A stretch of DNA of 64,000 nucleotides from a bacterium (GTDB lineage Bacteria; Patescibacteriota; Patescibacteriia; Patescibacteriales; Patescibacteriaceae), in the NCBI GenBank assembly GCA_035438725.1, contig DAORIW010000002.1, forward strand, positions 2,882 through 66,881, given 5' to 3'. The translations under genes were made by a program, and so were the position numbers. The notes below the pieces were generated by a model. The model was not told the origin of the DNA, made no database searches, and saw only the letters and a list, made by a program, of their open reading frames with translations. Shown piece by piece: positions 23,621-61,927 of this stretch (its first letter is position 1; each line of letters starts with the position of its first letter).

Positions 23621-23628
23621 AAAAGTTG

Positions 23629-23702
23629 TGGACCTGAAGGGATTCGAACCCTTGACCTCCTGCTTGCAAAGCAGGCATTCTAACCAGCTGAACTACAGGC
23701 CC
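23629..23702 (-). tRNA. tRNA-Ala (UGC)
   Basis: Cloverleaf GGGCCTG...CAGGTCC with G3:U70, anticodon loop TTTGCAA, GG in the D-loop, TTCGAAT T-loop; CCA not encoded. Confidence 0.95.
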
Positions 23703-40058: not shown

Positions 40059-41186
40059 ATGAAAACAACTGAAATACGACAAATTATAAAAAATTTACCA
40101 AGAATACCCAATATCGCTTATTTGCATGAAGCGCCGGTTATTCATTCAGGTTTTCCATCATGCTTTAACCTTTCTTTTGGTGAGTATGAGTTATTGAGAG
40201 AATTTAATGGCCAATACTTAGTGTATGACCATGATTGTATCTATTCAAAGATACAGCCTTGCATTAGACACCAAGACTGGGAAACAATTGTTAAAGATGA
40301 AAAGAATCGCTGGCGTTATCTTTCTTTATTTAATATGGCTGATGTTTCAGGATTGATTATAAAACAAAATAATAAAGAACAGGAGGAATTGGGCAAGCAC
40401 GCTATTTTCTCGTTTGTACATTTTATTGTTTCACTTGGTCTAAAAAAAGAAAATTTACGAATCTCTTACTTTGCTGGTGGAAAGGTAAGGGATGTTACTA
40501 AAGGAAAGTATGAGTTAGAAACATACATTCCATCAGATCCCTTAAAAGATTATTGGAAGTCTTTAGGTATTAGTGAAAATCAGTTTATTTCAGATGCAAC
40601 TCGCGATACCTTTTTAGCTTTACAAGTATTTGGTTTACCTACTCCTTGGGGGTACCGCAATGAGATAAATTATTTGCATGACGGAAAATTACTTGATATT
40701 GGAACGGTTGAGTATATGAAATTTGAACCTGTGTTTGTAGATAAAAAGATTATAGCGCTTAAACCTTTTCGTCATTCTTTAGGAATTTCCGCAGTCGGTG
40801 TCGAGCGATTATTAATGATAATTAATAACCATGCAAACGTGTATGATATTGATATTATTGAACCGCTCATTCATGAAGTATTAGAAAGGTGTGAAAAAAA
40901 AGATAAGATTCAAGCAATGATTATAGTTCAGGCTATTCGAGCTCTGCACCAAATTATTTCTGACGGGGGAATATACTCTCGTTTAAACACTCGACGTAAA
41001 GAGTATGTACGTATGTTTTGTAGGGGTATGGTAGCAGCGGCCAAAAAAATAAACTATAATCTTTCCTCAATAAATATAAAAAAAATCTTGCAATTGAATG
41101 CAAAATTGCAATCATTCTATCCTCAGTTATTAAATAATATTGAAATAACGGGGCAAGAGATTCAAGCAAGAGTTAATCAATTATAA
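40059..41186 (+). CDS. Stand-alone, diverged alanyl-tRNA synthetase catalytic-domain (class IIc) paralog, 375 aa
   Basis: Collinear with the AlaRS N-terminus: TEIRQ; [11 protein letters not shown] vs [24 protein letters not shown] vs [24 protein letters not shown] vs CGPCTEIFYDHG; VEYMKF vs [28 protein letters not shown] vs [33 protein letters not shown] vs IRSCAFLIADG. No editing or C-Ala domains. Confidence 0.75.
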   Translation: [375 protein letters not shown]

Positions 41187-41207
41187 AAAAAATATGTAAA
41201 AAAATAA

Positions 41208-41279
41208 AGGGACGTAGCTCAATAGTAGAGCGTCTGCCGTATATGCAGATAGTTGAAGGTGCAAATCCTTCCGTCCCGA
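41208..41279 (+). tRNA. Atypical tRNA-like gene 1 (UAU at the anticodon position)
   Basis: Cloverleaf (A)GGGACG-TA-GCTC-AATAGTA-GAGC-G-TCTGC-CGTATAT-GCAGA-TAGTT-GAAGG-TGCAAAT-CCTTC-CGTCCC(G)-A. G at position 33, no G18G19, G at position 55, A1 opposite G72. Confidence 0.6.
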
Positions 41280-41290
41280 CACATAAATAA

Positions 41291-41375
41291 AGGGAGGTGG
41301 CGAAATTGGTAAACGCACTTACGTAAAAGTAAGCGACTGAAATGTCTTGGGGGTTCAAGCCCCCCCCCCTCCCGA
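41291..41375 (+). tRNA. Atypical type-II tRNA-like gene 2 (Leu-like, UAA/AAA region)
   Basis: (A)GGGAGG-TG-GCGAAATTGGTAAACGC-A-CTTAC-GTAAAA-GTAAG, long variable arm, GGGGG-TTCAAGC-CCCCC, two extra C, CCTCCC(G)-A. 6-nt anticodon loop and a C9 run. Confidence 0.5.
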
Positions 41376-41398
41376 CTAGCTTATGTAAAAATTTTAAT

Positions 41399-41470
41399 AG
41401 GGGCGTAGCTCAATAGTAGAGCGTCTGTTTTACCTACAGAAGACTGGAAGTGCAATTCTTCCCGTCCCGA
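41399..41470 (+). tRNA. Atypical tRNA-like gene 3 (UAC at the anticodon position)
   Basis: (A)GGGGCG-TA-GCTC-AATAGTA-GAGC-G-TCTGT-TTTACCT-ACAGA-AGACT-GGAAG-TGCAATT-CTTCC-CGTCCC(G)-A. C at position 37, no G18G19, G at position 55. Confidence 0.6.
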
Positions 41471-41527
41471 CAAGTAAGTATTTATACTATAAAATACTCC
41501 TTTCGAAGTGTTCTATAATTACTAAAT

Positions 41528-44877: not shown

Positions 44878-45657
44878 TTATTCAAATTCTAAGGTCAGAG
44901 GTAGATGATCGGAAATTTCATCTTGAAGAACTTCAAAATGTTTAACAGTAATATCTGGAGAAATTAAAATATAATCTGCGAATTTATCAGGTTTTGAGTA
45001 ATAGCTACTTCTCGTAGAAGTGAAGGGCGAAGATTTTACAAGATTGATCATGTTCTGTTCTAAAATTTTAATGCTTTGACAATCAGGTTGTAAATTAAAA
45101 TCACCACATAATATTTTTTTACCATTTTTAGTTTTCAGGAAATTATGTAATATAGTAGATTGCGTTAATCGTTCAGCCGTATCTTTTTTGTGTGTATCTT
45201 GTTGCCAGAGTCCATGAAGATTAAGAATGGAAAGCATTTCTGTCTCTTTAATTTTAAGATCAATCCACTGACAACTTCCTGTTATTTTCCCCCCTAAGAA
45301 TACTTTATTAGGTATCGTATTACTATAACATCGAAAGCCTCCGTGATTATTTACTAATAAGTCTTTTTTGATAAAAATAGCTTGTCCAGGAAGAGTTCCT
45401 TTTTTTAAAGGTTCATCCTGAAAATGTATAGCTTCTTTTGGAGCATGGTATTTAAAAGCTATAAAATCCGGAAGACATTTTTCAATTTCTAAAAAAATGT
45501 TTAGTCGAGCCTTATGAACCGGAGTAACCTCAGGTTCTAGACCAAATATCATTTCCTGAAAACAAAAAATATCAGTGCCGGGAGCCTGAAGTTTAATAAA
45601 ATCAATTAAGGGTTCAAAAATTTTTCCACCCCAGATATTTAAGGTGATAAGTTTCAT
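44878..45657 (-). CDS. Endonuclease/exonuclease/phosphatase (EEP) family protein
   Basis: LNIWGG..., FCFQEM, GDFN, SDHLPL motifs; start moved to ATG 45657 because the tracked N-terminus overlaps tRNA-Ile. Confidence 0.75.
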   Translation of the reverse strand: MKLITLNIWGGKIFEPLIDFIKLQAPGTDIFCFQEMIFGLEPEVTPVHKARLNIFLEIEKCLPDFIAFKYHAPKEAIHFQDEPLKKGTLPGQAIFIKKDLLVNNHGGFRCYSNTIPNKVFLGGKITGSCQWIDLKIKETEMLSILNLHGLWQQDTHKKDTAERLTQSTILHNFLKTKNGKKILCGDFNLQPDCQSIKILEQNMINLVKSSPFTSTRSSYYSKPDKFADYILISPDITVKHFEVLQDEISDHLPLTLEFE

Positions 45658-45670
45658 GAGTTTCAATATG

Positions 45671-45744
45671 TACGCCTGCTTGGACTCGAACCAAGGACCC
45701 TCGAGGTATAAGCTCGATGCTCTAACCAACTGAGCTACAGGCGC
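45671..45744 (-). tRNA. tRNA-Ile (UAU)
   Basis: GCGCCTG-TA-GCTC-AGTTGGTTA-GAGC-A-TCGAG-CTTATAC-CTCGA-GGGTC-CTTGG-TTCGAGT-CCAAG-CAGGCGT-A; canonical elbow; G1.U72. Confidence 0.85.
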
Positions 45745-45764
45745 TTACTTTACAACTTCGGTAG

Positions 45765-45838
45765 TGATCACTAGTGGACTCGAACCACCGACCTCCACGA
45801 TGTCAACGTGGCGCTCTAACCAACTGAGCTAAGCGATC
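45765..45838 (-). tRNA. tRNA-Val (GAC)
   Basis: GATCGCT-TA-GCTC-AGTTGGTTA-GAGC-G-CCACG-TTGACAT-CGTGG-AGGTC-GGTGG-TTCGAGT-CCACT-AGTGATC-A. Confidence 0.9.
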
Positions 45839-60076: not shown

Positions 60077-60506
60077 CCTTGTCTTGAGATAATCGCTCGG
60101 TACACAGATGATTGCTTTATTCAAAATGGATAGAGAGGAAAGTCCGGACTCCAGAAAAAGGGCAGTGGGTAACGCCCACCAGAAGTAATTCTAGGGAAAG
60201 TGCCACAGAGACAATACTAGCTGACTCATAGAGTCAGTGAAAGGTGAAAAGTGAGTTTAGGTTGCTAAAGTCAGCCAGAACTCTCGTCGCTTGGTGACAG
60301 GCTGACGCGGTAAACCCTGCCTGGAGCAAGAGCAAACCTTTTTTCGTCAATGATGAAAAAAGATGAAAAGTAGCTCGCTTGAATTCTTAAGCAATTAAGG
60401 ATCTAGATAGATAATCATCGTTCGGTTCTCAGCGTGTTATATAACATTCTGAGGTCGGATACAGAATCCGGCTTATCGTGTGCCGGGTGTTTATTTCATG
60501 ATAAGG
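60077..60506 (+). ncRNA. rnpB: RNase P RNA (bacterial type A)
   Basis: Universal P4 strands GAGGAAAGTCCGG (about 60134) and ACAGAATCCGGCTTA (about 60461), GGGTAACGCCCA, AGTGCCACAGAGA, GGTAAACCC; long P1 pairing 60077-60105 with 60478-60506. Confidence 0.9.
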
Positions 60507-60511
60507 CATGT

Positions 60512-61927
60512 ATGAAAAAATCAGATTTATTTTTTTCCGTTATCTTGGTTCCGCTTGATTTTTTAATGATTGTCGCGGCTGGGTTATCGGCTTATTATCT
60601 TCGTTTTTCAGAGCTGTCCACTGATATTCGACCAGTGATTTTTAGTTTACCGGTCGGAGAATATATTTCTATTGTTTTAATACTTGCTACCGTTTGGCTT
60701 ATTATTTTTAGTTTTTCCGGGTTATATAATATTCGGGAATTAGGTAGCCTTAAAGTTGAATTAAAAAAAGTAATCATGGGCTGCTCACTTGGATTAGTGG
60801 CCGTTGTAATTTTTATTTTCTTTTACCGTGAACTTTTTTCTTCACGTTTTATTGTTTTAGTTGGTTGGGCTTTTGCAATTCTCTATGTTGGTGTGGGAAG
60901 AATCTTAGTAACATTAATTCGTCGTTTATTATTTCGTAATGGTCAAGGAATTCATTCAGTTGTTGTGGTGGGCGAAAGCCAAACCGCCGACCATTTGGTA
61001 CGAGAATTTGCCCGTCGGCCAGGACTTGGTTTTGTAATTGTAAAGCGTTTATCCGATTTTAGTTTAGAATCAGCTAAAGAACTAGAAGCACTATTAGCCG
61101 TTAGAGAAGTAGATGAAATTTTACAAGCTGATCCCACTCTTTCTAAAAGTGATCGTTTACGATTATATGACTTTGCTGATGAACATCATTTGGTGTATAA
61201 GTATGCAGCTGATCTTTTGGAAACAAAAGTTTTGCGAGTTGAGGTTGATGAACTAGCCGGTATTCCGATTGTTGAAGTTAAAAAAACTCCTCTCGATGGT
61301 TGGGGGAGAGTTGCTAAACGAATTGGGGATATTATTGGTTCCATTTTTCTAATAGTAGTAACCAGTCCCATTATGCTTTTGGTTATTATCGCCATTAAAC
61401 TCGATTCTCGGGGGCCTATTTTCTTTTCTCGACTTGATGATGATTCACCTTTGTATCGAATTGGTCAGGGAGGTAAAAAGTTTCGTTATTTAAAATTTCG
61501 TTCGATGGTTCCGCGAATGAATAGTTTGCGCTACAGTGAGTTAGCTGATCGTAATGTACGTTCCGACGGACCGATGGTAAAGATAAAAGATGATCCTCGA
61601 GTAACTCGAGTTGGAAAATTTATCCGTCGATTTAGTTTTGATGAATTACCGGAATTATTTTTAGTCCTCGTTGGTACAATGAGCTTAGTTGGTCCTCGTC
61701 CACATTTACCTGAGGAAGTAGCTAAATATGAAGGTCGTCATAAAAAAGTTTTAACAATTAAGCCGGGTATTACCGGATACGCTCAGGTTTCTGGGCGAAG
61801 TGATTTAACTTTTGAAGAAGAAGTGAGACTGGATATTTATTATATTGAAAACTGGGCAATTGTTTCTGATATTATTATTCTTCTAAAAACACCATTAGCG
61901 GTTCTTCGTCCGCGCGTGGCTGAGTAA
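60512..61927 (+). CDS. Polyprenyl-phosphate sugar phosphotransferase (WbaP/EPS initiating transferase family)
   Basis: N-terminal TMs plus Bac_transf core KRIGDIIGS..., KFRSM, DELPELFLVLVGTMSLVGPRP; start moved to ATG 60512, outside rnpB. Confidence 0.88.
   Translation: MKKSDLFFSVILVPLDFLMIVAAGLSAYYLRFSELSTDIRPVIFSLPVGEYISIVLILATVWLIIFSFSGLYNIRELGSLKVELKKVIMGCSLGLVAVVIFIFFYRELFSSRFIVLVGWAFAILYVGVGRILVTLIRRLLFRNGQGIHSVVVVGESQTADHLVREFARRPGLGFVIVKRLSDFSLESAKELEALLAVREVDEILQADPTLSKSDRLRLYDFADEHHLVYKYAADLLETKVLRVEVDELAGIPIVEVKKTPLDGWGRVAKRIGDIIGSIFLIVVTSPIMLLVIIAIKLDSRGPIFFSRLDDDSPLYRIGQGGKKFRYLKFRSMVPRMNSLRYSELADRNVRSDGPMVKIKDDPRVTRVGKFIRRFSFDELPELFLVLVGTMSLVGPRPHLPEEVAKYEGRHKKVLTIKPGITGYAQVSGRSDLTFEEEVRLDIYYIENWAIVSDIIILLKTPLAVLRPRVAE

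Follow-up and report, generated by a model that had tools for sequence, protein, structure and literature searches.

What are three odd tRNA-like genes doing directly behind the gene for a truncated relative of alanyl-tRNA synthetase (AlaRS) in a Patescibacteriaceae genome? The genes, referred to here as g1, g2 and g3, occupy positions 41208 to 41471 of a 64,000-nucleotide stretch of contig DAORIW010000002.1 (assembly GCA_035438725.1); this whole stretch is called the window. An earlier note on this DNA had favored a special, non-ribosomal role for the three genes, largely on account of an unusual tRNA elbow. Our comparisons lead to a different argument for a similar end. The best explanation of the sequence data is that the protein gene and the RNAs together form a self-contained, horizontally mobile module, consisting of an aminoacyl-tRNA synthetase (aaRS)-like enzyme and tRNA-like RNAs, which would occur mainly in the candidate phyla radiation (CPR; Patescibacteria). 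We put the probability that g1 to g3 are dedicated RNA partners of the upstream enzyme, charged by it with the use of ATP through a shared acceptor stem, at roughly one in two.

The tRNA-like genes of the window

The locus comprises the following features, where R1 denotes a custom covariance model of the module RNAs:

40059 to 41186, + strand: open reading frame (ORF) for a stand-alone AlaRS-like protein of 375 amino acids (aa), analyzed with Pfam, TIGR00344, AlphaFold and Foldseek
41187 to 41207, + strand: 21-nucleotide (nt) spacer between the ORF stop codon and g1
41208 to 41280, + strand: g1, class I tRNA-like RNA; ARAGORN, Ile-tat; Rfam RF00005, 58.0 bits; R1, 88 bits; A1·G72, G2G3G4, A5-U68 and A73; A18/G55 elbow; anticodon loop CGUAUAU (G33, anticodon UAU)
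41291 to 41376, + strand: g2, class II (tRNA-Leu-like) tRNA-like RNA; ARAGORN, "tRNA-???" with a 2-nt anticodon; Rfam, 29.5 bits; R1, 19.5 bits; long variable arm; canonical elbow; 6-nt anticodon loop GUAAAA, in which no normal anticodon can be presented
41399 to 41471, + strand: g3, class I tRNA-like RNA; ARAGORN, Val-tac; Rfam RF00005, 55.8 bits; R1, 88 bits; A1·G72, G2G3G4, G5·U68 and A73; A18/G55 elbow; anticodon loop UUUACCU (anticodon UAC, C37)

The three genes are real. Both g1 and g3 pass the RF00005 gathering score of 29 (E ~1e-11), and g2 is borderline at 29.5 bits. The sequence details listed by the earlier note are all present at 41208 to 41471, as judged by ARAGORN, Rfam and the Infernal alignment: the 5' half common to g1 and g3, the A opposite G (A1·G72) that caps GGG/CCC in all three genes, and their common end, ...CCC-G-A-C. 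The D-loop reads AAUAGUA in g1 and g3, and the T-loop reads UGCAAAU in g1 and UGCAAUU in g3. Infernal also keeps the register in which g1 has G33 and g3 has C37. A different fold, with U33, a purine at position 37, G18G19 and U55 restored, was rejected because the Infernal alignment uses that same register; none was found. The features of a functional elongator (a 7-nt anticodon loop, U33 and a purine at 37) are not all present in any of the three, given G33 in g1, C37 in g3 and the 6-nt loop in g2.

The odd elbow that had been described for these genes is found in g1 and g3 but not in g2, which has a D-loop with GG (AAAUUGGUAAA) and a normal T-loop, UUCAAGC. The D-arm of g2 is tRNA-Leu-like; that of the class II RNAs reads GUGGCGAAAUUGGUAAACGC. 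The acceptor register shared by the three genes is obtained in g2 only if two C's of a run of ten are bulged, and the Infernal register instead gives two acceptor mismatches. This C10 run (window 41363 to 41372) lies at the junction of the T-stem and the acceptor stem and holds two surplus C's relative to the homologous RNAs of loci L012 and L011a (loci are denoted by L numbers throughout). The surplus may reflect a real bulge or a homopolymer-length error of the assembly.

Conserved linkage of gene and RNAs

In the window, the AlaRS-like ORF and g1 to g3 lie on the same strand, the ORF ends 21 nt before g1, and no promoter-like or terminator-like site is found between the ORF and the RNAs. 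We examined 51 GTDB loci and then 5 further close relatives for the same arrangement. One or two tRNA-like RNAs were found directly 3' of the gene in 12 CPR loci among the 51, and 4 of the 5 further relatives also carry linked tRNA-like RNAs. Of 23 related CPR loci counted together, about 16 have between one and three tRNA-like RNAs behind the gene, at -35 to +21 nt relative to the ORF stop. With a chance adjacency of ~0.0025 per locus, the probability of 16 in 23 is ~6e-37. The linkage persists through complete turnover of the anticodon stem and down to ~45% protein identity. In two loci, L030 and L032, the RNAs lie directly upstream of the gene. The upstream RNA of L032 (L032:3847-3941) carries a hairpin of ~20 nt inserted in the D-loop and has the anticodon loop GUGAAAA.

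In many relatives, gene and RNA are not merely adjacent. In 12 of the 17 linked loci (L001, L003, L004, L005, L008, L009, L010, L034, L172, L174, L176 and L178), the ORF lacks its own stop codon and ends at one inside the first RNA gene, with an overlap of 10 to 35 nt; in the rest the gap is 0 to 21 nt. The embedded stop occurs in two registers. In the first (...AGG GGT GTA GCT CAG TAG), it lies in the D-loop, and in the second (...AAA GGG GTG TAG), it is formed by U8-A9-G10. As far as the RNA boundary, the amino acid sequence of the C-terminal tail (...DKSIK) is conserved. Cleavage by RNase P at the 5' end of such an RNA would leave a non-stop mRNA, so that protein synthesis and RNA maturation may be coupled.

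All-against-all clustering of neighboring ORFs revealed no conserved protein neighbor in 52 loci, and candidate partners of the Fem, MprF, cyclodipeptide synthase (CDPS) or integrase type were likewise absent from these clusters. In L178 and L179, the module is inserted in the spc ribosomal-protein operon, between the genes for ribosomal proteins L5 and S14 (L178:3001-4452). Given the absence of a conserved protein neighbor and this insertion within an operon, the module behaves as a self-contained cassette. The same two loci have ~230 nt of extra non-coding sequence before S14. A phage or defence origin was also considered and rejected: PADLOC gave no match, PHROGs gave insignificant matches only, and a search of 2.9 million viral contigs yielded no relatives.

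A shared acceptor end on three kinds of RNA body

The linked RNAs fall into three classes, which are distinguished by their bodies and anticodon arms:

Class I: Ile/Val-like body of 73 nt; 7-nt anticodon loop with N-A-Y at positions 34 to 36
Class II: tRNA-Leu-like body with a long variable arm; anticodon loops of 5 to 6 nt (GUAAAA, AAAAA, UUUUG)
Class III: varied body; anticodon arm a stem with a GNRA or other tetraloop, or a stem of 8 to 9 bp

In class I, 97.9% of cells in the cloverleaf alignment are paired and 10 pairs have changed on both sides, compared with 34 to 57% of cells paired in controls with slid partners. Covariation supports all four helices, and every pair of the class I anticodon stem has turned over.

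What remains constant is the acceptor stem. Among 25 linked RNAs, G2-C71, G3-C70 and G4-C69 each occur in 24, G7-C66 in 23, A73 in 24 and C74 in all 25. The 5:68 pair is a G·U wobble in 17 (G-C in 4, A-U in 2 and A·C in 2). The combination of G2-C71, G3-C70, G4-C69 and A73 is carried by 22/25 module RNAs versus 0/17 neighboring tRNAs (p=4e-9). The three RNAs of the window thus illustrate within one locus a pattern of different bodies and one acceptor end. Position 1:72 in the relatives is mostly a covarying Watson-Crick pair (A-U 8, G-C 6, U-A 4, C-G 2), and the A·G mismatch is found only in the window and in L176 and L177.

The catalytic fragment of AlaRS reads the acceptor stem of its tRNA and not the anticodon. 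By analogy, an identity set that is confined to the acceptor, combines a wobble with A73 and leaves the anticodon arm free to vary would be an AlaRS-type mode of reading RNA, with the wobble here at 5:68. The AlaRS identity pair itself, G3·U70, is not present in the linked RNAs, 24 of 25 of which have G3-C70, whereas the true tRNA-Ala of the window (23628 to 23702) has G3·U70; in this respect the module RNAs differ from the cognate RNA of AlaRS. Conserved linkage and a shared identity set that is absent from other tRNAs, as would mark a dedicated pair of aaRS paralogue and tRNA, are both found in this module.

An AlaRS-like core with an altered substrate pocket

The 375-aa protein matches the Pfam model tRNA-synt_2c at 32 bits and the alaS model TIGR00344 at 35.7 bits, compared with a cutoff of 457 for the latter. 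Its AlphaFold model, built on an alignment of 89 sequences, has a pLDDT (predicted local distance difference test) of 97.4 and a pTM (predicted template modeling score) of 0.93. The top 19 Foldseek matches are AlaRS catalytic fragments, which align over the whole length with TM (template modeling) scores of 0.73 to 0.77 and 17 to 20% identity; GlyRS-alpha, ThrRS and PheRS follow. By this match, the protein comprises the aminoacylation core and the first helical tRNA-recognition subdomain, and it lacks the Mid2, editing and C-Ala domains. It therefore resembles a canonical AlaRS catalytic fragment in its whole-length fold and in the ATP residues of motifs 2 and 3, but departs from AlaRS in its low identity, in a TIGR00344 score below the equivalog cutoff, in the lack of the full domain set and in the loss of the Asp that binds the alpha-amino group.

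Residues were mapped by alignment to the Aquifex aeolicus AlaRS and by conservation within the family, as follows:

ATP binding, motif 2: Arg in AlaRS; R70 in the family, invariant
Adenine stacking: Phe in AlaRS; F91 in the family, invariant
Acidic residue: Glu in AlaRS; D213 in the family, invariant
ATP binding, motif 3: G-x-E-R in AlaRS; G247, E249 and R250 in the family
Alanine pocket: Asn in AlaRS; T216 in the family, invariant in the 89 sequences
Alanine pocket: Val in AlaRS; E218 in the family, invariant in the 89 sequences
Alpha-amino group binding: Asp in AlaRS; Ile or another hydrophobic residue in the family

The invariant set comprises R70, F91, E202, D213, T216, E218, G247 and R250, and E249 is invariant or nearly so. 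The core features of a class II aaRS (antiparallel-sheet fold, motif 2 Arg and motif 3 Gly-x-Glu-Arg) are present, while all three alanine-pocket residues that would be expected of an alanyl-tRNA synthetase (Asn, Val and Asp) are replaced. With its ATP-binding residues kept and the alanine pocket altered, the protein has the look of a class II enzyme that still uses ATP but no longer takes alanine as its substrate. No canonical AlaRS is present within the 64-kb window.

The family is small and sharply separated from AlaRS. At E<=1e-3, 442 of 1.84 billion cluster representatives match, nearly all of them ~375 aa in length and annotated as "hypothetical." They derive from CPR/Patescibacteria, DPANN archaea and a few Rokubacteria and deltaproteobacterial metagenome-assembled genomes. 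In the open-access literature, we found no published description of the protein family or of the module, the nearest systems being the transferase AcmF and the staphylococcal non-proteinogenic tRNA-Gly species that are discussed below; the combination of AlaRS-like gene and tRNA-like RNAs appears to be previously undescribed.

Anticodon arms and decoding

Several module RNAs have anticodon arms that are unusable for decoding. These include g2 (GUAAAA), the RNA of L012 (AAAAA), L011a (a 9-bp stem with a 5-nt loop), L172b and L174b (GAAA tetraloops), and L006 and L008a (an 8-bp stem with a tetraloop). Such anticodon-less forms nevertheless keep intact stems that covary across species. Among the 15 class I RNAs, 6 have G33, C33, C37 or U37, and a pyrimidine at position 37 occurs in 5/15 versus 16/632 controls (p=5e-5). 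A 1:72 mismatch is what keeps the bacterial initiator tRNA away from EF-Tu. In the lineage of the window, decoding would be further compromised by the A1·G72 mismatch together with the features of the anticodon loops (G33, C37 and a loop of 6 nt).

The anticodon of g1 does not make it a housekeeping gene copy, because a canonical tRNA-Ile(UAU), distinct in its acceptor stem, is encoded elsewhere in the window. This housekeeping gene lies in tandem with tRNA-Val(GAC) at window positions 45670 to 45838 (- strand), and its RNA has a G1·U72 wobble. In this genome, AUA is read by a UAU anticodon rather than by a lysidine-modified CAU tRNA. An ORF at 44878 to 45729 overlaps the tRNA-Ile gene, and its 5' end is probably over-extended.

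A covarying alternative elbow

The earlier note had argued that loss of G18G19, of U55 and of the G19-C56 pair would dismantle the tRNA elbow and, hence, that the RNAs act outside the ribosome. Neither step withstood comparison. In the Infernal alignment, the 7-nt D-loop of g1 and g3 is A14-A15-U16-A18-G19-U20-A21, so that G18 is indeed replaced by A but G19 is retained, as is its partner C56; the only changes are G18 to A and U55 to G. These two changes covary. In the close relatives L172 and L174, the acceptor and anticodon arms of the RNAs are the same, but the elbow differs as a unit: one has AGUGGCA with UUCGAAC (G18/U55), the other AGCAGUA with UGCAACC (A18/G55). The same switch occurs in the Leu-like class, in which g2 and L012 have GG with U55 and L011a has AG with G55. 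On these comparisons, A18/G55 is probably best described as an alternative elbow, altered but not dismantled.

To place this variant more widely, metagenomes were scanned for the combined signature of an A18 D-loop and a G55 T-loop, which returned 80 loci (L052 to L131). Covariation was counted over 323 tRNAs of these loci that the pattern had not itself selected: U55 goes with GG in 245/251, and G55 goes with a non-GG D-loop (mostly ...A-G-Y-A) in 60/72 (Fisher p=9e-46). The 80 loci carry ordinary tRNAs of many specificities, and hmmsearch, with a working positive control, found the AlaRS-like protein in none of them, so that the elbow variant cannot serve to mark the module. Carriers of A18/G55 include the tRNA-Thr(UGU) that heads a Thr-Tyr-Gly-Thr-EF-Tu-Trp (tuf) operon in a bacterium of 65% GC, the tRNA-Phe of a marine chromosome fragment of 29% GC that recurs in ~20 contigs, and entire arrays of 24 to 31 tRNA genes (L060, L072, L088, L109, L120 and L124). 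Further example sites are L093:8627-8701 and L082:8556-8630, with T-loops of the form U-G-C-R-A.

Because A18/G55 covaries and sits on housekeeping decoders, the elbow is not evidence of a special role. It appears to be compatible with decoding and would be, in the module RNAs, an incidental and structurally neutral variant. It is not an idiosyncrasy of the lineage either, since all 4 other tRNAs of the window (Ala-UGC, Ile-UAU, Val-GAC and Glu-UUC) and 13 tRNAs of related loci have a GG D-loop and a UUCRA T-loop. No published description of A18:G55 covariation was found in the open-access literature.

The comparison with staphylococcal tRNA-Gly, on which the earlier note had leaned, holds only in part. 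The staphylococcal non-proteinogenic tRNA-Gly species that serve FemXAB have U18U19 or C18U19 and have also lost U55/C56 (PMC4574755). Like g1 and g3, they are extra copies with an altered D-/T-loop elbow, and they are proposed to escape translation and carry their amino acid elsewhere. In contrast, g1 and g3 keep G19 and C56, their variant appears compatible with decoding, and no Fem-type neighbor is found in the 52 loci; the staphylococcal RNAs retain an ordinary UCC anticodon, receive their glycine from the housekeeping GlyRS and have no linked aaRS paralogue. A non-ribosomal role for the module RNAs is plausible all the same, although for other reasons than the elbow: the linkage to the AlaRS-like gene, the acceptor signature, the unusable anticodon loops and the excess of pyrimidine-37.

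Two further observations concern elbows outside this argument. A C55 T-loop, UCCGAUU, occurs together with a GG D-loop in a DPANN tRNA-Thr (L040:1341-1414) and in a module-linked RNA (L176:2205-2277), which makes a third state at position 55. Separately, a group of tRNA-like RNAs in L059, L078, L081, L084, L089, L119, L107 and L130 (e.g., L059:1420-1497) has a D-arm and T-arm nearly identical to those of the L010 module RNA. In these RNAs, a 6-bp anticodon stem carries a GAAGGUU-type loop and the acceptor reads AGGAGAG, with C73-CCA; their genes lie among those of tRNA-Met, tRNA-Ile and tRNA-Arg, unlinked to an AlaRS-like gene.

Competing explanations of the module

In the reading that we favor, the enzyme would use ATP to activate a substrate other than alanine, either a different amino acid or another carboxylic acid. 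This substrate would be esterified to the 3' end of the module RNAs, which are recognized through their shared acceptor stem, and the charged RNAs would carry acyl or aminoacyl groups for purposes other than ordinary decoding. A more specific version can be proposed only tentatively, with the odds somewhat against it. It posits a translation-independent acyl-carrier system in CPR bacteria, in which a minimal class II ligase derived from AlaRS loads a non-alanine substrate on private tRNA-like carriers that it recognizes only by the GGG/CCC, G5·U68, A73 acceptor stem; some carriers would have dispensed with an anticodon, and the stop codon within the carrier gene would couple enzyme synthesis to carrier maturation.

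Several observations weigh against dedicated, non-decoding partners. ARAGORN and the custom covariance model found no adjacent tRNA-like RNA at the DPANN-archaeal, Rokubacteria and deltaproteobacterial homologues, nor at the CPR loci L002, L007, L014 and L175. The anticodon loop is fully canonical in 9 of the 15 class I RNAs, and positions 34 to 36 are always N-A-Y (UAU 7, UAC 8, CAC 1, GAU 1). An enzyme that reads the acceptor stem alone leaves this conservation unexplained; it would fit decoding or recognition by IleRS and ValRS. If the genome has no other tRNA-Val(UAC), g3 must decode. Finally, AcmF, the closest characterized truncated AlaRS-like protein, is a transferase and not a synthetase.

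An alternative, which is unlikely, has the chemistry reversed. The housekeeping IleRS, ValRS and LeuRS would charge the RNAs with branched-chain amino acids, and the AlaRS-like protein would be an aminoacyl-tRNA-dependent transferase that selects its carriers through the acceptor stem and hands their aminoacyl group on to another acceptor. A35 and Y36 are main identity nucleotides for ValRS and IleRS, and in the class I RNAs they are always kept while positions 33 and 37 drift and anticodon stems turn over. Bacterial LeuRS does not read the anticodon at all, and the class II RNAs are tRNA-Leu-like in their D-arm, long variable arm and A73. The class III RNAs, with their tetraloop anticodon arms, have no obvious housekeeping synthetase, and neither a biosynthetic-cluster context nor a conserved neighbor that could make the acceptor was found.

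The precedent for such a transferase is AcmF, from ascamycin biosynthesis in Streptomyces sp. 80H647, which is truncated, AlaRS-like and Ala-tRNA-dependent (PMC12945691). Compared by its description, AcmF has the same two stand-alone domains, for aminoacylation and tRNA recognition, has the Asn and Asp of the alanine pocket replaced (N219Q, D232E), as they are here, and acts on the acceptor end of a tRNA outside translation. The architecture therefore matches, but the loss of ATP-binding residues does not: most are gone from AcmF, while the module family keeps as invariant its motif 2 residues (Arg and Phe), the GxER of motif 3 and the acidic residues, none of which a pure transferase would be expected to need. 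AcmF also uses ordinary Ala-tRNA-Ala, supplied by its companion AlaRS, AcmD, and is encoded in a biosynthetic gene cluster without a dedicated RNA gene.

It is improbable that the module is instead an orthogonal decoding pair, in which the class I RNAs insert the substrate of the enzyme at AUA and GUA/GUG codons, as regulated mistranslation or recoding, in the manner of the Streptomyces ProRSx/tRNA-ProX pair. The retained N-A-Y anticodon, the canonical 7-nt loops in 9/15 (among them CUUAUAC, which the housekeeping tRNA-Ile(UAU) also has) and an elbow compatible with decoding would all agree with such a pair. An aaRS paralogue beside an anomalous tRNA gene, as seen here, is reportedly a known signature of such pairs, and PylRS/tRNA-Pyl and ProRSx/tRNA-ProX likewise have a divergent synthetase gene linked to an atypical tRNA with its own identity set. 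tRNA-Pyl and tRNA-ProX, however, are decoders with functional anticodon loops, whereas the co-located partners with the same acceptor are in several loci anticodon-less (g2, L012, L011a, L172b, L174b, L006 and L008a), 6/15 class I RNAs have G33, C33, C37 or U37, and the enzyme here is no more than a minimal core. Weaker binding to EF-Tu is to be expected from the A1·G72 mismatch of the window RNAs, and substitution at AUA and GUA, which are abundant in a genome of 36% GC, would be costly.

There is little reason to see in g1 and g3 an ordinary tRNA-Ile(UAU) and tRNA-Val(UAC) with harmless lineage variants, and in g2 a decaying tRNA-Leu pseudogene, their adjacency to the ORF being due to co-transcription or the insertion of a mobile gene. 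The Rfam scores of g1 and g3 are well over the gathering score, the elbow variant occurs in true decoders, mobile genes often land beside tRNA genes, and g2 is borderline, with a C10 run that disturbs its acceptor/T-arm junction. Against this stand the canonical tRNA-Ile(UAU) with its different acceptor stem that is already present in the window, an acceptor signature common to three unrelated body types and across species and found in no neighboring tRNA, a linkage that outlasts complete anticodon-stem turnover, anticodon-less forms whose stems stay intact and covary, and the absence of a linked integrase or other mobility gene in the 52 loci.

Very improbable as the main function is a cis element, whereby the tRNA-like structures would chiefly be a 3'-end processing, stability or autoregulatory signal of the AlaRS-like mRNA (RNase P cleavage removing the stop codon and inviting transfer-messenger RNA tagging, for instance, or the protein binding the tRNA mimic of its own message): the stop codons supplied in two registers from inside the RNA gene in 12/17 loci, the DKSIK tail conserved to the RNA boundary and the uninterrupted spacer of the window would agree with it, but two or three tandem RNAs of different bodies with full acceptor, T and D arms and A73-C74 tails exceed any need in cis, in L030 and L032 the RNAs precede the gene, the window ORF has its own stop 21 nt before g1, and a role in trans would not be excluded by one in cis. 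Precedents for tRNA mimics in cis are the thrS operator and the 3' tRNA-like structures of viruses. The latter, such as the valylatable structure of turnip yellow mosaic virus, share with the module a tRNA mimic at the 3' end of a coding RNA, a Val-type anticodon and the potential to be aminoacylated; they differ in belonging to viral genomic RNAs, with pseudoknotted acceptor stems and charging by the host ValRS, whereas the module RNAs are encoded in cellular genomes, frequently in tandem, and have true cloverleaf structures.

Other features of the window

A complete bacterial class A RNase P RNA is encoded at 60096 to 60491 (+ strand, 227.5 bits). A 497-aa ORF that begins with GTG (60434 to 61927) overlaps its 3' end by ~58 nt, and the true start of this ORF probably lies further downstream.

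Implications

With regard to tRNA structure, the A18:G55 covariation indicates that decoding tRNAs depend less strictly on U55 than is usually stated, and A18/G55 alone should not serve to call a tRNA non-proteinogenic. If the preferred reading of g1 to g3 as dedicated partners of the AlaRS-like enzyme is true, the module would be a naturally orthogonal, minimal synthetase/tRNA pair that relies on recognition of the acceptor stem only, with an identity set other than G3·U70. Synthetic biology would gain a new orthogonal pair from it. In studies of aaRS evolution, the module would reveal the capacity of the AlaRS core without the other domains, and it would be relevant to how the operational RNA code arose. 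For the biology of CPR bacteria and DPANN archaea, whose genomes are very small and would still carry an accessory aaRS-like module, it would point to an unrecognized tRNA-dependent pathway.

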